A stretch of DNA of 64,000 nt from Nannocystaceae bacterium (GCA_041389865.1 JAWKRA010000004.1:50307-114306), one strand, 5' to 3'. Counted from the first letter of the stretch, positions 52,704 to 62,392 are shown. Translations and numbers: made by a program. The notes: generated by a model from the sequence alone, not told the origin.

Positions 52704-53367
52704 TCACAGATCGACGGGGCGCGTCGACGCTTCAGCGAGCACCGACTCGAAGCGGCGCACGGTGAGGCCGGCGCCGCGACGCAGCGCGACCGCGATCGAT
52801 GCGGCCGGCCAGGCTCCGGGCAGGCGAAAGCGCCGAACCGCGAGGTCATCATCGATCGTCCCCGAGAGCCAAATCTGTATCTCGGGACCGCCGAGCGTGT
52901 AGGCGAAGTCGCCGAGCGGGAGCGCGAGCCCCATGCCGCGAGCCTTGATGTAGGCCTCCTTCCCAGGCGTCCAGTAGTCGAAGCGATCGCGCTGCGCCGG
53001 CTCCGGGAGCGCGCGCAGGGCCGCGACCTCGGGCGCCGCGAAGAAGTGCTCGGCGATCGAGATCCCCGACGAGCGCCGCGACGTGTCCTCGACGTCGACG
53101 CCGATGTCGCCGCGAGCGACGGCGCACACCGCCAGTCCGTCGGTGTGCGAGAGGTTGTGGCGCAGGCGCCCGAGCCGATAGGCGGGGTCGAGGAGGTCCG
53201 GTCACGTCCGTGCGGGCCGATCGTGAACTACCGCAACGCCGCCGGCGGGCGCCCGCGTAGGCCGGAAGGCGTGACCCGGGCGAGCGCGTGGCTGACGAGG
53301 TAGGGGTGGCGGGGTGACGGTTGAACAGGTAGCAGCCGTGACGCCGTCGCTCCTCGTCGTCGAGCAT
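52704..53367 (-). pseudogene. Sfp-type 4'-phosphopantetheinyl transferase with a frameshift
   Basis: RLRHNLSHTDGLAVCAVARGDIGVDVED and WTPGKEAYIKARGMG lie in one frame that opens at an internal stop. The N-terminal MLDDEERRRHG lies in another frame. Confidence 0.5.
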
Positions 53368-53569
53368 CGCGCGGTAAGCCGCCAGCAGATCGGGATCGAG
53401 GATCTGCTCGGGGGCGCGCCCGGTACGTGGACCTCCCCTCCGCGAAACCGGCGCCCGCTCTGCCGTCGAGGGCAGGTCTCCTCCCCGCGCGCCGGGGTCA
53501 AGTGTTGCAGAACCCGGCCGCGCGGGTCACTCTCCCGGGCGCATGACGAGCGCACTGGCAGACGCGGGG

Positions 53570-54750
53570 TCTTGCTCATCAACCTCCGGCACCCCGACGC
53601 GCCGACGACCGCCGCCGTTCGCCGCTATCTCCGCGAGTTCCTCACCGGCGGATCCGCGGGTCATCGACCCGTCCCCGCCGCTGTGGCGAGGCGGATCCTC
53701 TGCTGATCATCTTGCCGCCGCGGGCCCGCGCCTCGGCCGCGGCCTACCGCAAGATCTGGGAGCCCGACGGCTCGCCGCTGCGGGTCCACGGCGAGAAAAA
53801 CGCTCGCGCGCGGCGTCGCGGCCCAGCTGCCCGACGCCAGGAGGTCGCGCGCGGCGATGCCTTGCTGACGCGCCGTCGATCGAGGACGGGCTCTCGCAGC
53901 TGGCCGCGCGGCTGCGACCGCGTCACCGTGCTCCCGCTCTACCCGCAGTACGCCGCAAGCTCGACCGGCTCGACGCTCGGGCGCGGCATCTACATGGCTC
54001 GCCGCGCGCCTGTGGAACACGCCCAACCTCCGGGTAATCCCGCCGTTCTACGCCGATCGAGACCTCGACGCAGCCGCGCAGCGCGGGCGCGACACCCTGG
54101 CGAGCTTCCCCGCCGACCACGTGCTGTTCAGCTTCCACGGCCTGCCGGGCAGATTCACAAGGCGATCTAACGGCCCGGTGCCTGCGCGACGGCTGCTGCG
54201 ATCAGCTCACCGGCCTTAACCTCTACTGCTACCGCGCCAGTGCTTCTTTTGCCGCCCACGCGCTCGCCTCGCGCATGGGGCTCGCGCGCGAGCCGCTACA
54301 CGATCTGCTTTCAGTCGCGGCTGGGGCAGGACGCCGTGGATCCGCCCGTTCACCGACGAGCTGCTCGTCAGCCTGCCGGCCCAGGGCGTCCGGCGGCTGG
54401 CGGTGCTGTGCCGAGCGTTCGTCGCCGACTGCCTCGAGACGCTCGAGAGATCGGGCTGCGGGCCGCCGCCGACTTCAAGGTCGCCGGCGGCGAGCTGCGG
54501 CTCGTCCCGCCGTCAACGCCGAGCCGGCGTGGATCGACGCGGTCGCGCGGATGGTCGCCGAGCCGGGCCCCCGGCTCCCTGTCCTACCAGACATGTCACG
54601 GCGACCGCGCGACCGCGCGAGTCGGCGTAGCGGCCCGCGGCGATCAAGCCTCGAACACCTGTCTCATTCGACAGGTAGAAAGCTCCGGCGCGACCGCGGC
54701 TCGACGCGTCTCCACGGCGCGCGGAGCGAGCGGCCCGTCGCGGCCTGAAT
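53570..54750 (+). pseudogene. hemH: Ferrochelatase broken by at least 6 frameshifts
   Basis: Conserved blocks appear in all three plus frames: VLLINL..PDAPTTAAVRRYLREFL, DPRVIDPSPPLW, AAAYRKIWEPDGSPL, SIEDGLSQLAAR, GCDRVTVLPLYPQYAASSTGSTL, NLRVIPPFY, HVLFSFHGLP, YTICFQSRLGQDA, GVRRLAVLCRAFVADCLETLE. Confidence 0.6.
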
Positions 54751-54756
54751 GAAGGG

Positions 54757-55278
54757 TCAGGCCAGCCCGAGCAGATCGACGTAGGCGACCGCGACCCGGT
54801 CCTCGTCGGCGAGCTCGAGCGCGGCCGACAGCGCCGCGAGCCGGCGCCGGCCCGCGTCCTCGTCGAGCTCGGGGCCGAGCACCGCCTCGAATTCGACGAA
54901 CGCGCCGAGCCCCTCGACCTCGTCGAGGTGGATCCGAACGCCGCGCCAGCAGAGCAGCTCGCGACGCTTGCAGACCTGGCCGCGGACGCCGAGCGCGGCC
55001 GCGAGCGCCTCGGCCAACGCCGGCGCGTCGGCGACCGGGACCAGGCGATAGTCGCTCGCGCGCGCCGAGGCGGCGTCGGCCCGGCGGTACCAGATCAGCT
55101 CGGCGTCGCCGCTCGAGGACTCGCGCAGCTTGAGCCGCCCGTCTCGGCAGTGAAAGAAGGTGTCGCGCTGGGTCAGCGACCAGCGCCACGTAGCGCCGAG
55201 CTCGAGCGCGGCGGCCCGCGCCCGCGCAAGCGACGGGTGACGGGCCTTGAGCTCGATGTTGCGCCGCGGCCCGCTCAC
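54757..55278 (-). CDS. CYTH-domain protein (class IV adenylate cyclase / triphosphate tunnel metalloenzyme family)
   Basis: NIELKAR at the N-terminus (the ExExK-type motif) and a 173-aa size typical of CyaB-like proteins. Confidence 0.7.
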   Translation of the reverse strand: MSGPRRNIELKARHPSLARARAAALELGATWRWSLTQRDTFFHCRDGRLKLRESSSGDAELIWYRRADAASARASDYRLVPVADAPALAEALAAALGVRGQVCKRRELLCWRGVRIHLDEVEGLGAFVEFEAVLGPELDEDAGRRRLAALSAALELADEDRVAVAYVDLLGLA

Positions 55279-55793
55279 CCGGTCTTGCGCCTCCGCGCCG
55301 CCGGGCCGCGCCGAGCCCCCGCGAGCCGCAGCACGGCCTCGAAGTGGCCGGCCTCGACCGGCTGGACCGACAGGCGCATGCCCTTTTGGACCACCATCAT
55401 CTTGGCGAGCGACGGGTCGGCCTTGAGCGCCTCGAGGGTGACGACCTCGTCGAAGCGCTCGACGAACTCGACGTCGACGAGCAGCCAGCGCGGGTCCTCG
55501 CGCTTCGACTTGGGATCGTAGTAGCGCGACTTGGGGTCAAACGCGGTCTCGTCGGGGTAGGCCTGGCTGGCGACGCGCGCGAGGCCGACGACCCCGGGGG
55601 GTGTCGCGCTCGAGTGGTAGAACAGCGCCCAGTCGCCGACCGCCATGTCGTCGCGCATGTAGTTGCGGACCTGGTAGTTGCGGATCCCGTCCCACGAGGT
55701 CTTGCCGTCGCGGGCGAGGTCGTCGATGGAGTACGAGCCCGGCTCGCTCTTCATCAGCCAAAAACGGGGAGGTCTCGCGGTGCGGGCGGCCAT
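55275..55793 (-). CDS. EVE (PUA-like) domain protein
   Basis: FWLMKSEPGSYSIDDL...WDGIRNYQVRNYMRDDMAVGDWALFYHS matches the EVE signature. Its stop overlaps the CYTH start by 4 nt. Confidence 0.75.
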   Translation of the reverse strand: MAARTARPPRFWLMKSEPGSYSIDDLARDGKTSWDGIRNYQVRNYMRDDMAVGDWALFYHSSATPPGVVGLARVASQAYPDETAFDPKSRYYDPKSKREDPRWLLVDVEFVERFDEVVTLEALKADPSLAKMMVVQKGMRLSVQPVEAGHFEAVLRLAGARRGPAARRRKTG

Positions 55794-55979
55794 GGGTCCT
55801 TCCTGCCGCAGCGCGCGAATGCGCGCAACGCTGGGCACCCCCGGTGACGCGGGTTCCCTCACGAGGCGCTGCGCGGGCCGTCGATGGCGAGCCCGCGACC
55901 GGAGTCGCCGCGTCGGTCGGCGGCCGCGGCGGGAGCATCGTCGCCCGCGGCGACGCGACGCTCCTGGTAGAACATCCCG

Positions 55980-57089
55980 GTGCTCGCGCCGATGAGGCCC
56001 TCCCCCGCGCCCGCCGGGACCCAGGCGGTCCGCCGCGTGCTCGGAGCGGCGCTGCTCGCCTCGCCGTGGGTGCAGCGGCTCGGACGGATCAGCTTCCTCG
56101 GCACGCTCGACGCCCACCCGCAGAGCAAGGTCCGCTCGTCGCGGCTCGATCACTCGCTGTCGGTCGCGCGCCTGGGCCTCGAGGTCGCGCAGGCCGCTCG
56201 GCTGCCGGCGAGCGAGCGCCGCCACTTCGTCGCCGCCTGCCTGCTCCACGACATCGGCCACTACCCGCTCTCGCACGCCGCCGAGCCGGGCTTCGCCCGC
56301 GGCCTCGGCGTCGCCCACCACGCCGTCAGCGAGTGGCTGGTTCGAGGGACAGGTCCGATGGGCCCTGCGATGTCGCTGCGCCCGACGCTCGCGGCCGCCG
56401 GCCTCGACGCCGACGCGGTCTGGGCGATCATCGCCGGCGACGCCGCGGCGTCCAGGCTCGCGCCCTTGCTGCACGGCCCGATCAACCTCGACACCCTCGA
56501 CGGCATCGTCCGGGCCGCGCGCGCGTTCGGGCTCCGCGGCGTGCGGCTGCCGGAGCGCCTGTTTCACCTCCAGGACGGGCGCCCGTGGATCCGCGCCGCG
56601 GCGGTGCCGGTCGTCGATCGCTTCTGGGCGCTCAAGGATCGGGTCTACTGCCGGGTGATCAACCTGCCGTCGAACATCGTCTGCGAGGCGCGGATGTCCG
56701 AGGCGGTCGCGCGCCGCTACGATCGATCGATCTTCACCGGCTTCGCCAGCTTCGACGATGACGCGCTCGCCGAGCTGCTGCGCGAGCACGCGGCCGAGAG
56801 CGGGCTTACGCGCGGACGGGACGACGCGTTCCGCCTCGACGCGACGCCGGCGGCGGGCGAGCACCTCCAGCGCTCGCGCAAGCGCTACTTCATCGATCAC
56901 AGCGCGACCCCCGACGAGCGCGGCCTGCCGCTCGATCGTTGGGCGCGGCGCTACCGACACGAGCGACAGCTCCGCTTCCTCGTGCCGCACGATCCCGCCG
57001 TCCAGCTGTCGCTGCCGGGGCTCGGCGGCGGCCGGAGGTCCACGCGGCGCGGCGCCGCGCCGCTCGTCTCCGAGGAGCCCGAGATCTAG
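55980..57089 (+). CDS. HD-domain phosphohydrolase (dGTPase/SAMHD1-like core)
   Basis: QRLGRISFLG...RLDHSLSVARL...AACLLHDIGHYPLSHAAE contains the H...HD metal-binding motifs. Confidence 0.75.
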   Translation: MLAPMRPSPAPAGTQAVRRVLGAALLASPWVQRLGRISFLGTLDAHPQSKVRSSRLDHSLSVARLGLEVAQAARLPASERRHFVAACLLHDIGHYPLSHAAEPGFARGLGVAHHAVSEWLVRGTGPMGPAMSLRPTLAAAGLDADAVWAIIAGDAAASRLAPLLHGPINLDTLDGIVRAARAFGLRGVRLPERLFHLQDGRPWIRAAAVPVVDRFWALKDRVYCRVINLPSNIVCEARMSEAVARRYDRSIFTGFASFDDDALAELLREHAAESGLTRGRDDAFRLDATPAAGEHLQRSRKRYFIDHSATPDERGLPLDRWARRYRHERQLRFLVPHDPAVQLSLPGLGGGRRSTRRGAAPLVSEEPEI

Positions 57090-57329
57090 CCAGGAGTCCT
57101 CGCCGAACTCCGATCGCGAGCGCCACGTGCAGGAAAGGACAGGCAGCACGCCCTCATCGCTCCTCGACGCGCCGCCCGTGCGCCTCGCGTCCGGCCGGTT
57201 CGATCGGTCCTTCCATGCACATGGATCCCTCGTCCCAGGCCCTGGGGGAGCGCTCCGGGCTCGACGCGGCGACCCCCTGGCTCGTCGCGCCTGCTTCGAC
57301 CCCGCGGCGCCGCGCGGTGATCGACCTGT

Positions 57330-58394
57330 ATGAACGAGCAGGTTGACCCCGCGGCGCGCGACGACGAGGCGCCGTCGCTGTTCACCCTCGACGGGCCCAT
57401 CGACTACCGCGCCGCCTTTCCCGAGCTCGGGATCGATCCAGCCGAGGTGCCCGCGGTGGTCGCCGCCAGCGACACCTCGTGGGCGAAGATCGACGCCGCC
57501 CGCCGCCAGCTCGCGCGGCTCCACGCGCCGGGGCTCGCCTGCTTCGCGCTCGGCTCGGTCGGTCGCCTCGAGTCGTCGGCGATCAGCGACCTCGACCTCG
57601 CGGTCGTGCAGGTCGACCCGTCGCGCGACGCGGCCGCGTGCGAGCGGGACCGCGACGACGTCATCGCCTCGCTGCGCGCGCTCGGCCTCGACGTCCACCA
57701 AAAGACCTTCGATCGCGTGGTCCGCCTCGACGCGATCGTCCGCGACGTCGGCGGGCGCCACGACAGCAACGACCACCTGACCTACCGGGCGTTGCTCTTG
57801 ACCGAGGGCGCGTGGCTGCTCGGCGAGGGCGCGTGCTCCCAGGCGCTGCGGACCCTCTTCGAGGTCTACAGCCGCGGCCGCATCAGCCGCGGCCGCTCGC
57901 TGAGCTCGCTCGACAACGATCTGCAGCGCTACTACCGAACCCTCTGCGTCGACTACCGCTTCAAGGTCGAGGAGGCGCACAAGCAGTGGGCGGTCCGCAA
58001 CCTCAAGCTCCGACACTCGCGCAAGCTGTGGCGGCTCGCCAACCTCTCGCTGTTCTGCGCGGCCGCGGCCCAGCCCGAGCGGACGCGGGTGCGATGGATC
58101 GCCGCGCGCCTCGGCGCCCCGCCGCTGTGGCGGATCATCGAGGTGCTGCGCGGGCTCGACGGGAGCGGGCTGTGCGGTCCGCTGGTCCGCGCGTTCGATC
58201 CGTTCCTGGACGCGCTCGCCCGCCCCGAGACCCGCCGCGCGCTCGACGAGCTGGCCCACGAGCGGCGCTGGCAGTCGCCGATCTATCAATCGCTGCACGA
58301 GAACGGCGAGCGGCTCGAGGCGGCCGCCCACGCCGTTGTTGATCACCTGTGGACCCGCTGCCACGATCACCTGCTCCGCTTCGGCGTGCTGTGA
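57330..58394 (+). CDS. Pol-beta-superfamily nucleotidyltransferase (GlnD/GlnE/DUF294-like)
   Basis: ALGSVGRLESSAISDLDLAV matches G-S-x10-D-x-D like GlnD GGYGRGEL.P.SDIDL. A ~250-aa helical substrate-binding region follows. Confidence 0.5.
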   Translation: MNEQVDPAARDDEAPSLFTLDGPIDYRAAFPELGIDPAEVPAVVAASDTSWAKIDAARRQLARLHAPGLACFALGSVGRLESSAISDLDLAVVQVDPSRDAAACERDRDDVIASLRALGLDVHQKTFDRVVRLDAIVRDVGGRHDSNDHLTYRALLLTEGAWLLGEGACSQALRTLFEVYSRGRISRGRSLSSLDNDLQRYYRTLCVDYRFKVEEAHKQWAVRNLKLRHSRKLWRLANLSLFCAAAAQPERTRVRWIAARLGAPPLWRIIEVLRGLDGSGLCGPLVRAFDPFLDALARPETRRALDELAHERRWQSPIYQSLHENGERLEAAAHAVVDHLWTRCHDHLLRFGVL

Positions 58395-58650: not shown

Positions 58651-60429
58651 CTAGCGCGACGGGATCTTGGTGACGATCCCCTCTTCGGGGTCGATGTCGA
58701 TGTTCTCGCCGGAGCGGATCGTCCGCGGCTGGCTCTTGGCGAGCGCCAGGTTCATGACCGAGAGCTCCTCGCCGACGACCGCCTTCACCGTCTTGCGGAT
58801 GCGCTTGTAGCCGTTGAGCCGGATCTCGATCTTGCGATTGCCGGGCGCGAGGTTGAGGACGATGGGCGTCTCGCCGGCCTTCTTGCCGTCGACCGTGACC
58901 GTCGCGCCCTTGGGGTCGGTGATCACCTCGAGGTCGACGGTCTCGCCGTCGACGGGCGGCGGCTCCTCGCCTGTCGTCTCGCTGGCCGGCGCTTCGCCGG
59001 TCGTCTCGGCGGCGGTGGTCTCCTCTTCATCGCTGACCGTGTCCCAGCCGCTGCTGCCCGCGGCCTCCTCGCCCTCGGCGAGCAGCGCGGTGAGGCGCTC
59101 TTGCGCCGGGCGGTTGCTCGGATCAAGCGCGAGCGCCTCGCGGTAGAGGCGAACCGCCTCGTCGTGCGCGCCCTGGGCCTCGGCTCGCCCCGCGTCGGTC
59201 AGGAGCGTCGCCAGCTCGCTGACGACCGCCGTCTCGCCGGCCTCGCCCTCCACCTGCGGCCCGTCGGTCGGGGTCGGACGATCGACGACCGGCTTGGGCT
59301 CGGGTGTGCCAGCGTTGACGAACGGCAGCTGGCCTTGGGTGTAGAGGAAGAACGCGACGCCGCCCGCGACCAGCACGAGCAGTCCGAGGATGAGCCCGCC
59401 CGAACCAGACTTCTCTTCGTCGGCGATCGACTCGGAGACCGCCTCGACCGGCGCGAGGACCTCGGGCTCAGGGGCCGGCTCGGGCGGTCGCAGCGGCGTG
59501 ATCTCGGGGGCCGGCGGCGGCGTCGGAGGCGGAGCGACCCGCGGACCGCTGAGCGCCTGCTTGACCGGATGGGGCGCGCTGACCTCGGGCACGCCGCCGC
59601 TGCTGCCGGGCCGGCCCTCGCCTGCGCGCGGCAGCCGGAACAGCGCCGCCGGGACCGCGTCGATCAGGTGCTCGACGACTTCGTTGGTGTCGATCGGCCG
59701 GCGCTCCGGGTCGCGCGCCAACGATCGATCGACGAGCTCGACGAGCAGCGCCGGCACCTCGTGACCGGCCGGCAGGGCCTGCCCGAGCGAGATCGGGTCG
59801 CCCGGCCGCGGCACCCGGCCCGTCAGCATTCGATAGAACAGCGCGCCGATCGAGTGGACGTCGACGCGCGGATCGCTGGTCTCTGGATCGGCGCCCGAGA
59901 TCAGCACCCGCAGCCCGAGGTCGCAGATCTTGACGAAGTTGGCGCGCCCCTGGTGCTCGATGAGGAACACGTCCTCGGCCTTGAGATCGCCGTGAATCAG
60001 GCCGCGGGCGTGGGCAGCTCCGAGCGCCTTGAGGATCTGGGAGGCGATCGGCACGAACGTGTGGATCGGCAGGGGGCCGACGTCCTCGAGGAACGCCTCG
60101 AGGGTCTCCCCCTCGACCAGCTCGGTGACGAGGTAGGGCCCGAACTCGCCGTCGACGCCCGAGTCGTGGGCGACGGTGATGTTTGGGTGCTCGAGCCCGA
60201 TCAGCGACCGCGCGCCGTCTTCGAACGCCAGCACCGCCTCTTCGCTGGGGAACGCCGCGTGCCCCAGCAAGTTGACGACGACCGTGCGGTGCATCGTCCG
60301 GTGACTGGCGCGGTAGAGTCGCCCGGTGGGCCCCTCGGCGATGCACTCCTCAAGCGCGTAGTGCACGCCCACCGTTCGGCCGATCAGCGGATCCGCCTTG
60401 GCGGCTACCTTTGACTTCATGCCCTGCAT
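58651..60429 (-). CDS. Ser/Thr protein kinase with TM, TPR-like region and C-terminal PEGA domain
   Basis: Full kinase domain (VAVK-like Lys, HGDLKAEDVFL, DLGL, APE). Pro-rich linker, TM, TPR-like helices. PEGA domain (GATVTVDGKKAGETPIVLNLAPGNRKIEIRLNGYKRIRKTV). Confidence 0.85.
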   Translation of the reverse strand: MQGMKSKVAAKADPLIGRTVGVHYALEECIAEGPTGRLYRASHRTMHRTVVVNLLGHAAFPSEEAVLAFEDGARSLIGLEHPNITVAHDSGVDGEFGPYLVTELVEGETLEAFLEDVGPLPIHTFVPIASQILKALGAAHARGLIHGDLKAEDVFLIEHQGRANFVKICDLGLRVLISGADPETSDPRVDVHSIGALFYRMLTGRVPRPGDPISLGQALPAGHEVPALLVELVDRSLARDPERRPIDTNEVVEHLIDAVPAALFRLPRAGEGRPGSSGGVPEVSAPHPVKQALSGPRVAPPPTPPPAPEITPLRPPEPAPEPEVLAPVEAVSESIADEEKSGSGGLILGLLVLVAGGVAFFLYTQGQLPFVNAGTPEPKPVVDRPTPTDGPQVEGEAGETAVVSELATLLTDAGRAEAQGAHDEAVRLYREALALDPSNRPAQERLTALLAEGEEAAGSSGWDTVSDEEETTAAETTGEAPASETTGEEPPPVDGETVDLEVITDPKGATVTVDGKKAGETPIVLNLAPGNRKIEIRLNGYKRIRKTVKAVVGEELSVMNLALAKSQPRTIRSGENIDIDPEEGIVTKIPSR

Positions 60430-60754: not shown

Positions 60755-62392
60755 TTGCGCCCGCGCGGTTCCACGCGTAGCGTCGCGCGCATGCGAGCGG
60801 TCCGGCGCGCGCCTCTTCACCTGTCCCATCGTACATCTTCAAACGCAGGCGCCGCGCGATCCAGCGTCGTCGCGGCTGCCCCGAGAGACACGCGGCGCAT
60901 CGTCAGCGTCGGCCTGGCGCTCGCGATCACGCGGGTCGCCTGCGGCGGCGGCGAGGACGACTCCAGCACGGAGACGGGGCCTGCGACCACCGTGAGCGCG
61001 TCGACGAGCGCGTCCGGGACCGGTCACGAGGCGACCGACCCCAGCGACGCGACCGCCTCCGATCCGAGCGACACGGTCCACGGCAGCGACAGCGACGGCA
61101 CCGACGGCACCGACGCGACCGACGACACCGCCGCGACCACCGACGACATCACCGCGACCGACACCGACGCGACCACCGCTCCGACCGACGCGACCACCGA
61201 TCCCACCGACGCGACCACCGATCCGACCGACGCGACCACCGATTCGACGGAGACGGATGGATGTCCTGAAGGACAGCTCGAATGCCCGTGCGGACCGATG
61301 GCCAGCTGCGACGACGGCCTCGTCTGCGAGGCGGACGTCTGCGTCCCCGGGGCGATCTGCGGCGACGGGGCGCTCGATCCCGGCGAGGGCTGCGACGACG
61401 GCAACCTCGACGGCGGCGACGGCTGCAGCCCGACCTGCACGCTCGAGAGCTGCGGGAACGGGATCACGGATCCGGGCGAGGCCTGCGACGACGGCATGGA
61501 CGGCGACAACGACGACGGCTGCACCGACCTGTGCGCGAAGCCAAGCTGCGGCGACGGCTTCGTCCAGCAGAGCCTCGGCGAAGCCTGCGACGATGGCCCC
61601 CAGAACAACGACGGCGCCGCCTGCACGCTCGCGTGCGCGCAGGCCAGCTGCGGCGACGGCAAGCTCTGGGTCGGCGAGGAGGAGTGCGACGACGGCAACG
61701 GCGTCAACACCGACGCCTGCCTCGCCAGCTGCGCCGCGGCCTCCTGCGGCGACGGCTTCGTGTGGAGCGGCCAAGAGGAGTGCGACGACGGCAACGGCGT
61801 CAACAACGACCTCTGCAGCAACACCTGCACCCTCAACGAGATGGGCGGCGAGGACCCGTGCGGCTTCGCCGACGACGACGGCGTCTGGATCGACATCGAC
61901 TACGAGGACGCCTTCACGGTCACGAGCCCCGACTACAGCTACTCGCCGACGCCGGCCTGGCAGGAGCCCGAGTGGACGCCGACCCAGATGGGCTACTTCT
62001 GGCCTAAGGTCGTGGACCTCTACAACAACATGACGGTCGACAACGATCCGATCGGCAAGCTCGCGGTCATCAAGTCCAACAGCACCCTGCGCCTGTACTT
62101 CGGGACCAAGAACCTGTGGAGCTACACGAGCGCGACGGTGTGCGTGACCGGGCGCAGCGTCTCGGTCAGCTCGCCGGTGACCTTCCAGGTCATCAACCCG
62201 GCCAACGGCGACTGCGGGGCCTCGGCGATGATGTCGCACGACTGGACGGTGCACGCCTCGGGCGTGACGATGCCGGCCAACTGCATCATCCCCAACCACG
62301 GCTTCCAGGCCATCGACATCGACGCGACCGGCGGCAGCGCCAAGCTCGGGGTCCGCAGCGTCCGCCTGACCCTCCACGGCGCGCAGTACTGA
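60755..62392 (+). CDS. Lipoprotein with five myxo-type Cys-rich repeats and a C-terminal beta-rich domain
   Basis: Lipobox-like LAITRVACGG. T/D-rich linker encoded by 21-nt tandem repeats (TDATTDP x3). Five repeats of the form CG(D/N)G...EECDDGN...D.C...C. Start uncertain. Confidence 0.6.
   Translation: MRPRGSTRSVARMRAVRRAPLHLSHRTSSNAGAARSSVVAAAPRDTRRIVSVGLALAITRVACGGGEDDSSTETGPATTVSASTSASGTGHEATDPSDATASDPSDTVHGSDSDGTDGTDATDDTAATTDDITATDTDATTAPTDATTDPTDATTDPTDATTDSTETDGCPEGQLECPCGPMASCDDGLVCEADVCVPGAICGDGALDPGEGCDDGNLDGGDGCSPTCTLESCGNGITDPGEACDDGMDGDNDDGCTDLCAKPSCGDGFVQQSLGEACDDGPQNNDGAACTLACAQASCGDGKLWVGEEECDDGNGVNTDACLASCAAASCGDGFVWSGQEECDDGNGVNNDLCSNTCTLNEMGGEDPCGFADDDGVWIDIDYEDAFTVTSPDYSYSPTPAWQEPEWTPTQMGYFWPKVVDLYNNMTVDNDPIGKLAVIKSNSTLRLYFGTKNLWSYTSATVCVTGRSVSVSSPVTFQVINPANGDCGASAMMSHDWTVHASGVTMPANCIIPNHGFQAIDIDATGGSAKLGVRSVRLTLHGAQY

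Follow-up and report, generated by a model that had tools for sequence, protein, structure and literature searches.

A widespread HD-nucleotidyltransferase gene pair of Clover-like architecture, and its EVE-CYTH neighbours, in a Nannocystaceae genome

Introduction

The closest described system to the locus reported here is Clover, a two-gene anti-phage operon encoding the HD dGTPase CloA and the pol-beta nucleotidyltransferase (NTase) CloB (Yamaguchi et al. 2025, PMC12265719). CloA was toxic alone or when combined with an active-site mutant of CloB, and it is activated by dTTP (PMC12265719). CloB synthesises p3diT, which binds and inhibits CloA; dephosphorylated p3diT is inactive (PMC12265719). 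More than 650 operons pairing a deoxynucleoside triphosphate (dNTP) triphosphohydrolase (dNTPase) with an NTase were reported, CloB homologues were found beside various effectors, and CloA showed ~33% similarity to SpdGTPase (PMC12265719). In the type VII toxin-antitoxin system MntA-HepT, a pol-beta NTase likewise neutralises its operon partner using nucleotides. Here we describe a pair of genes, encoding an HD domain protein and a pol-beta NTase, from a 64,000 bp stretch of DNA of a Nannocystaceae bacterium (GCA_041389865.1 JAWKRA010000004.1:50307-114306). This whole stretch is referred to as the window, and positions are counted from its first nucleotide.

The two genes lie in an interval (54757-58394) that also encodes an EVE and a CYTH domain protein, and all four genes were intact. 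An initial annotation, made from the sequence alone, had taken the four as one group of nucleotide-handling genes, either a nucleotidylation signalling module or a nucleotide-depletion or modified-base-sensing defence island. Its four domain assignments and their coordinates were confirmed by Pfam and gene calls. The interval consists of two unrelated units, EVE→CYTH and HD→NTase. The HD→NTase pair is a real unit and a widespread, self-contained cassette. It is built like the dNTPase-NTase modules of Clover and differs from them in its putative dNTPase lineage, the GlnE fold of the NTase, the phosphatase that usually accompanies the pair and an unusual chromosomal fixation in one family.

Results

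The HD-NTase cassette and its distribution

The HD gene (55980-57089, + strand) is the first gene of the cassette and encodes 369 amino acids with a match to Pfam PF01966 (E 8e-7). After a spacer of 240 bp (57090-57329) it is followed by the second gene (57330-58394, + strand), which encodes a 354 amino acid pol-beta NTase with a helical C-terminal domain. The spacer is unusually long compared with the 100 bp or less, or the overlap, found in nearly all relatives. The window NTase was 100% identical to R3A51_01065 of a Nannocystaceae metagenome-assembled genome (MAG).

Scanning one genome per species with the NTase revealed 39 loci, one in each matching genome, 38 of which were informative for linkage to HD. 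These loci were almost all from Nannocystaceae (Nannocystis, Enhygromyxa, Plesiocystis and MAGs), with two from Acidobacteriota. For 37 of the 38, the gene directly upstream of the NTase was an HD orthologue in the same orientation. Metagenomes provided a further 80 loci of the wider cassette family, and HD was immediately upstream in all 70 that had at least 400 bp of upstream sequence. The HD→NTase arrangement was likewise found in Vibrio cholerae, Citrobacter freundii and Pseudomonas alloputida, and a distant member of the NTase family (L043) also had an HD gene upstream. The clustering of HD with the NTase exceeds chance; that of EVE and CYTH was not shown to go beyond inherited synteny.

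A profile search with the NTase against 1.84 billion cluster representatives (E ≤ 1e-3) found 1,802 relatives, comprising ~23 close orthologues and then a large family of proteins of 310-350 amino acids. Six of the top 150 relatives were proteins of 664-708 amino acids in which the NTase makes up the C-terminal half. Pfam matched HD in the N-terminal half of five (P0283, P0305, P0315, P0331 and P0349), which are HD-NTase fusions; the sixth, P0337, had a fusion-like length and a C-terminal NTase with no Pfam HD match. Identity between the N-terminal half of P0283 and the window HD was 28% (E 3e-21). Two further HD-NTase fusions, L098 and L104, were present among the metagenomic loci. The obligate pairing, together with the fusions, therefore points to a direct functional dependency between the two proteins, and the suggestion in the initial annotation that they work as a pair is borne out by their adjacency in nearly every locus and their fusion in several proteins.

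The cassette was also found on a 4.5 kb ColE1-type plasmid of Escherichia coli (NZ_CP092257), where HD and NTase are the only cargo beside rop and ori. The HD gene of this plasmid spans the origin of the record, and its product shared 29% identity with the HD of the window (E 1e-26). Among 5,426 complete E. coli genomes, this mini-plasmid was the single carrier of the cassette. A mini-plasmid with the pair as its only cargo fits a toxin/antidote-like unit. Both in the gamma-proteobacteria and on this mini-plasmid, the cassette has the character of an accessory element, in the manner of an addiction or defence module.

Strict HD-NTase adjacency was broken only in Enhygromyxa salina SWB005 (L034), where the 10 kb upstream of the NTase contained no HD gene, and in Nannocystaceae ST9 (L002/L037), where a gene for a VanY-like peptidase was inserted between HD and NTase. 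A more distant homologue on a plasmid of Rhizobium sp. BT04 (L045, 5962-7657) was followed by a histidine phosphatase gene, had no HD annotated upstream and lay within a cluster of glycosyltransferase, major facilitator superfamily (MFS) and HAD genes.

The HD protein

Foldseek comparison of the AlphaFold2 model of HD (pLDDT 87.5) identified 2q14 (E 2e-10, TM 0.65), as well as EF1143, Aq_1910 and SAMHD1 (TM 0.60-0.65, E 2e-10 to 1e-7). The whole length of the protein fits the SAMHD1/EF1143/BT4208/Aq_1910 dNTP triphosphohydrolase fold. This agreed with a profile search of the PDB, in which the matches were 2q14 (2e-10), 2hek (5e-10) and EF1143 (5e-9). The motifs RxxHS, LLHDxGHxPxSHxxE and D-T-L-D and the downstream metal-binding Asp were aligned in the profile comparison. 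The likeness to these COG1078-type HD enzymes extends to the whole-protein fold, the first two motifs and the downstream Asp. Residues R55, H58, H90, D91, H94, H99, E102, H113, H114 and D171 were invariant in 66 of 66 diverse HD homologues and, judged from the alignment, make up the full SAMHD1-type metal and catalytic set. The dGTPase/SAMHD1-like core proposed in the initial annotation was confirmed by the fold and by the N-terminal motif. The dGTPase models of PADLOC and NCBIfam aligned with no more than ~50 residues on and beside the HD motif and scored far under their cutoffs.

The window HD differs from the SAMHD1/EF1143-type enzymes in several respects. It is only 13-19% identical to them, its second motif is N-L-D-T-L-D-G-I and not D-x-D-R-x-D-Y, and its family has a D-x-F-W-x-x-K-x-x-x-Y motif of its own and is always paired with an NTase. 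We regard the window HD as a putative dNTP triphosphohydrolase effector.

The C-terminus of the Nannocystaceae HD (residues 347-369, 57021-57089 in the window) consists of a disordered linker and then a conserved E-x-P-E-I tail, which is absent from the E. coli HD homologue. This tail may be a docking peptide.

The NTase

The NTase encoded the G-S-x10-D-x-D motif noted in the initial annotation, which was located at G75-S76 and D87-L-D89. More fully, it has the signature G-[GS]-x-[GA]-R-x-E-x4-S-D-[ILV]-D followed by a helical domain, a feature of the GlnD/GlnE type. Across the NTase family this GSxGRxE-x4-SDxD signature was conserved together with a C-terminal RYYR…K..R motif. In Pfam, DUF294 was matched at a borderline 21.2 bits (cutoff 21), the thresholds of GlnE and GlnD_UR_UTase were not reached, and there was no match in NCBIfam. 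A sequence-only search of the PDB gave no match. The GlnE/DrrA fold was assigned to the AlphaFold model (pLDDT 91) by fold comparison alone, with DrrA and GlnE as the only strong structural relatives.

The protein is a single 354 amino acid module. It differs from the adenylyl- and uridylyl-transferases GlnE, GlnD and DrrA in being only 9-13% identical to them, from GlnE and GlnD in lacking ACT domains and duplicated NTase modules, and from GlnD in that its partner HD is SAMHD1-like and separately encoded upstream. Orthologues within Nannocystaceae were only 41-62% identical. The window NTase also carries a non-conserved N-terminal extension of ~20 amino acids. As the catalytic residues and signatures are conserved in both proteins, HD and NTase are both predicted to be catalytically competent, and the NTase is a putative dedicated regulator of HD.

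The gene downstream of the NTase

Of 34 distinct genes found directly downstream of the NTase, 29 encoded a short (~165 amino acids) branch-1 histidine phosphatase (His_Phos_1). A gene for a HAD-type hydrolase was present downstream in 17 Nannocystaceae and Acidobacteriota loci. The window and its nearest relatives had no third gene; instead, a Ser/Thr kinase gene was convergent to the NTase. Our literature search found no report of HD, NTase and histidine phosphatase in combination.

Comparison with Clover and MntA-HepT

Like Clover, the cassette encodes an HD-superfamily protein of dNTPase fold and a pol-beta NTase as a two-gene unit. The spacing of D91, H99 and E102 in the window HD equals that of D118, H126 and E129 in CloA (in which the motif residues are H117-D118, H126 and E129). 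CloA is a 473 amino acid Dgt-type dGTPase, whereas proteins of the window HD family are 350-370 amino acids long and of SAMHD1/EF1143 type. The window HD profile matched SeCloA (9p8s/9p8t) at E 0.53 (12.5 bits), compared with 2e-10 to 5e-9 for BT4208, Aq_1910 and EF1143. Because the match to SeCloA is so weak, the analogy with Clover rests on architecture and not on orthology. Further differences are the GlnE/DrrA fold of the window NTase (CloB was compared by description only), the addition of a phosphatase gene in most cassettes of the window type, and the chromosomal fixation of the window copy outside a defence island. A plasmid search with E. coli Dgt, from which four dGTPase loci were inspected, revealed no adjacent NTase in any of them, and no structure of CloB was found in the PDB copy searched.

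Additionally, MntA was among the Foldseek matches to the NTase core. MntA is a minimal protein (~120-140 amino acids) whose partner is a HEPN RNase, whereas here a 354 amino acid NTase with a GlnE-like helical domain is paired with HD.

The EVE and CYTH genes

The EVE gene (55275-55793, - strand, 172 amino acids; PF01878, E 5e-56) was found as the C-terminal end of a spurious open reading frame of 1031 amino acids, and its true ATG was read from the sequence. It overlaps the downstream CYTH gene (54757-55278, - strand, 173 amino acids; PF01928, E 1.6e-12) by 4 bp (GTGA, 55275-55278), shared by the EVE stop and the CYTH start, and the two are probably co-transcribed. Between EVE and the divergent HD gene is an intergenic region of 186 bp (55794-55979). 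A consensus scan of this region detected no sigma-70-like promoter or terminator, such a scan being uninformative for a myxobacterium of ~72% GC.

EVE matched its Pfam model at 189 bits over model positions 1-144 of 145. Its PDB matches were 2ar1, 2eve and 2g2x (E 1e-41 to 1e-43) and THYN1 (2e-32), a likeness to the stand-alone bacterial EVE proteins (PSPTO5229, PP5205, THYN1-like) that places it, by sequence, with the highly conserved stand-alone PUA-like type (THYN1/PSPTO5229). CYTH is CyaB-like and passed the Pfam threshold at 48 bits (cutoff 23). It differs from CyaB class IV adenylate cyclases in scoring 27.4 bits against TIGR00318 (cyaB), below the cutoff of 57.95, and in the replacement of the metal-binding E-x-E-x-K by N-x-E-x-K (residues 7-11, N-I-E-L-K) in all 13 aligned Nannocystaceae homologues. 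Its nearest PDB sequences were the archaeal PH1819/2dc4 proteins.

Adjacent to HD-NTase, EVE was present in 20 and CYTH in 13 of the 38 informative loci, and only within the Nannocystis-like clade; CYTH adjoined EVE in 13 of the 20 EVE-carrying loci. This clade retains a syntenic block of tryptophanyl-tRNA synthetase (TrpRS), 4′-phosphopantetheinyl transferase (PPTase), ferrochelatase, (CYTH-EVE), HD and NTase, in which ferrochelatase, PPTase and TrpRS were as syntenic as EVE-CYTH. The closest relatives of the window, L003 and L004, already lacked CYTH. Neither EVE nor CYTH was present within 10 kb of the HD-NTase copies of the Enhygromyxa/Plesiocystis clade and Acidobacteriota, and no homologue of either was found in 91 other HD-NTase cassette loci (653 kb in total). 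Conservation of the neighbourhood was therefore divided: HD-NTase was conserved throughout (37/38 and 70/70), and EVE-CYTH was not conserved outside the Nannocystis-like clade. Because its adjacency is limited to one clade and it is absent elsewhere, EVE-CYTH is a neighbour by descent and not a conserved component of the cassette, and the equal conservation of ferrochelatase and PPTase beside EVE argues for plain synteny.

Bell et al. (2020) described stand-alone EVE genes as lying in conserved housekeeping contexts, in some cases beside haem-biosynthesis genes, and their survey mentions no EVE-CYTH, EVE-HD or EVE-NTase link. In the window, EVE-CYTH abuts the ferrochelatase gene. No literature on the combination of EVE with CYTH was found. 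EVE→CYTH is a small, housekeeping-looking pair that is present here only through the synteny of the Nannocystis-like lineage.

Neighbouring genes and defence context

The window has a GC content of ~71%. Upstream of the four genes are a PPTase (ACPS) gene (52755-53412, - strand) and a ferrochelatase gene (53560-54530, + strand), each split over 2-4 reading frames. L003 and L004 carry intact orthologues of both, and the split reflects either pseudogenes or indel errors made in assembling the MAG. A PPTase gene was near HD-NTase in both Nannocystaceae clades (L030-L032 and L037, also L024-L028, and the window). Several Enhygromyxa-like loci had it directly upstream in the same orientation; in the Nannocystis-like clade it was on the other strand, at a distance of two or three genes. 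On the other side of the cassette, the gene convergent to the NTase encodes a Ser/Thr kinase with TPR and PEGA domains (58651-60429, - strand) and is syntenic in the subclade of the window. Beyond it is a gene for a Thr/Asp-rich, Cys-repeat, secreted-looking protein (60755-62392, + strand). The neighbours are syntenic housekeeping or biosynthetic genes and the window locus is not a defence island, contrary to one of the two readings in the initial annotation.

Elsewhere, approximately one tenth of 111 genes flanking metagenomic cassettes (an estimate from per-family counts) matched PADLOC models, namely those of type II restriction-modification (RM), PtuA, AbiU, MADS and Nhi, and the Citrobacter copy was flanked by toxin-antitoxin genes. 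The defence-gene flanks suggest some association of the cassette with defence islands outside the window. The window NTase itself matched PADLOC PDC-M70A (PDLC04778) at E 1.2e-31 over positions 18-338 of 355, and the NTase and its relatives matched this model at E 1e-31 to 1e-57, near full length. PDC systems are defence candidates derived from guilt-by-embedding and are untested predictions (bioRxiv 10.1101/2024.01.29.577857). None of the PDC-M70 partner models was matched by the window HD, EVE or CYTH, nor did the HD, His_Phos and HAD proteins encoded in related cassettes match any, and no literature on PDC-M70 was found beyond the candidate listing. The view that the combination is not a described system is half true, as the dNTPase-NTase pairing of Clover was described in 2025 (PMC12265719) and the NTase family corresponds to the PADLOC candidate PDC-M70A.

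A different partner set was seen for the same NTase family on a Mycobacterium sp. SMC-8 plasmid (L046, NZ_CP079868, 3989-7454), where the NTase lay between a gene for an OLD/Gabija-like AAA ATPase and a convergent HIT-domain gene, adjoining a type I RM system. This NTase and OLD-like ATPase are probably the PDC-M70 architecture.

Discussion

The enzymatic activities of the two proteins, the direction of regulation between them and its biological role are discussed here as we infer them. We judge it slightly better than an even chance that the NTase regulates a dNTPase-type HD. HD would be a SAMHD1/EF1143-type (d)NTP triphosphohydrolase whose unchecked activity would drain nucleotide pools, and the GlnE-like NTase would be a dedicated brake on it, using NTP or dNTP. 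The precedent of Clover argues that such a brake on a dNTPase would be needed. The brake could take two forms, between which our confidence is split roughly evenly. In the first, the NTase would make a nucleotide ligand that inhibits HD, as p3diT made by CloB does with CloA; in the second, it would nucleotidylate HD directly, as MntA does with HepT and GlnE with glutamine synthetase. What makes the covalent form possible is that the strong structural relatives of the NTase are all protein AMPylators. The histidine or HAD phosphatase encoded by the third gene in most other bacteria would turn the signal over, and the brake would then decay through this turnover once synthesis stops. Since dephosphorylated p3diT is inactive (PMC12265719), a recurrent phosphomonoesterase fits the destruction of a 5′-phosphorylated signal. 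In Nannocystaceae the cassette may provide constitutive immunity or control of dNTP pools. The nucleotide-depletion or nucleotidylation logic put forward in the initial annotation is plausible on this reading.

Several observations weigh against the proposed brake or against a role of the window copy in defence. The strong structural relatives of the NTase, DrrA and GlnE, are protein AMPylators and not nucleotide-signal synthases; at the level of modelled folds, this would favour covalent modification of HD or, going further, of some other protein. HD was ruled out as a CloA orthologue by its SeCloA match, and the literature searched contained no characterised member of the window HD subfamily. 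In phage collections the NTase family was present in one of 2.9 million viral contigs and in none of 50,697 phages, a scarcity that is neutral with regard to defence but does not speak for mobility. Housekeeping synteny (PPTase, ferrochelatase, TrpRS and Ser/Thr kinase) is kept in the window and its relatives, with no defence or mobile neighbours, and the vertical inheritance of the window cassette is atypical for defence systems. The window copy also combines the long HD-NTase spacer with the lack of a phosphatase gene.

In an alternative reading, the chemistry of the cassette would be unchanged but the Nannocystaceae copy would be a domesticated housekeeping regulator of dNTP/NTP pools, acting for example in starvation or development and not in immunity. 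Domestication is a real rival to immunity: the pair in this family occurs in a single copy, is inherited vertically and lies among housekeeping genes. It accounts for the single locus in each of the 39 matching species-representative genomes, nearly all of them Nannocystaceae, for the stable block with PPTase, ferrochelatase and TrpRS, and for the lack of defence or mobile genes around the cassette; the 41-62% identity of the orthologues fits a long history of vertical descent. In other bacteria, however, the close relatives in architecture are sporadic accessory genes, such as the single E. coli occurrence and the Citrobacter copy beside toxin-antitoxin genes, some cassettes are located beside RM, Septu or Abi genes, and fixed chromosomal defence genes are not unheard of. 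On balance we consider domestication unlikely, while keeping it as the foremost of the alternatives.

The pair could also be a split GlnD, in which the NTase would nucleotidylate a Tyr, Ser or Thr of a third protein and HD would remove the mark. GlnD joins NTase and HD domains in one protein, and the HD-NTase fusions would fit such a bifunctional enzyme, as would the GlnD/GlnE/DUF294 signature and GlnE/DrrA fold of the NTase. Yet the window HD is not the small phosphodiesterase HD of the GlnD/SpoT type; it is a full-length SAMHD1/EF1143-type protein with complete triphosphohydrolase residues (R55, H58, HD90-91, H99, E102 and D171). The domain order is reversed relative to GlnD, there is no conserved candidate for a target gene nearby and no ACT or PII-sensing domain, and the recurrent phosphomonoesterase gene would be left unexplained. 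A writer and eraser of this kind is thus distinctly improbable.

Much less credible still is a small-molecule modification or resistance set, in which the NTase would adenylylate a hydroxyl of an antibiotic-like compound or metabolite, as ANT/AadA enzymes do, with HD and the phosphatase processing the products. The weaker Foldseek matches of the NTase include AadA, ANT(4′) and AAD(9), the Rhizobium homologue lies in a glycosyltransferase/MFS cluster beside a histidine phosphatase gene, and genes resembling those of non-ribosomal peptide synthetases are near the locus in the window. These ANT matches were weak (TM 0.2-0.28, probability <0.9). Across phyla the NTase has its obligatory partner in a SAMHD1-type HD, a protein that plays no part in pathways of this kind, and no transporter or biosynthetic neighbour was conserved.

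Least likely of all, and largely refuted by gene distribution, is a single four-gene nucleotide-signalling or modified-base-sensing system of EVE, CYTH, HD and NTase: the short divergent region between EVE and HD, their adjacency in 20 loci and the occurrence of PUA-like readers in dNTP-depleting defence systems (for example the PUA-Cal-HAD system) are outweighed by the absence of EVE and CYTH from the other clades and the 91 other loci, the loss of CYTH in L003 and L004, the equal conservation of ferrochelatase and PPTase where EVE is adjacent, and the stand-alone, housekeeping-context type of EVE (Bell et al. 2020).

Returning to the reading of the NTase as a brake on HD, a broader claim can be made only tentatively, and we hold it to be possible but doubtful: that SAMHD1-type HD, GlnE-type NTase and phosphatase together would form a distinct, widespread and uncharacterised class of self-regulated nucleotide-depletion systems, with a new brake chemistry, either covalent or a phosphatase-labile signal, that was domesticated in Nannocystaceae.

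If the NTase does regulate HD in this way, the logic of Clover, with an NTase restraining a toxic dNTPase, would extend beyond Dgt-type dGTPases. The SAMHD1/EF1143 type, to which the human restriction factor belongs, would be a second dNTPase lineage with such a partner, in this case a GlnE-like enzyme and in most cassettes also a phosphatase. The cassette would offer a bacterial model for regulated SAMHD1-like enzymes and possibly a new nucleotide signal or protein-nucleotidylation switch. Recognising the link to EVE and CYTH as an artefact of synteny stops the spread of a mis-annotated 'four-gene system'. The Nannocystaceae copies, for their part, would be an example of a module that has turned into a fixed chromosomal gene pair.

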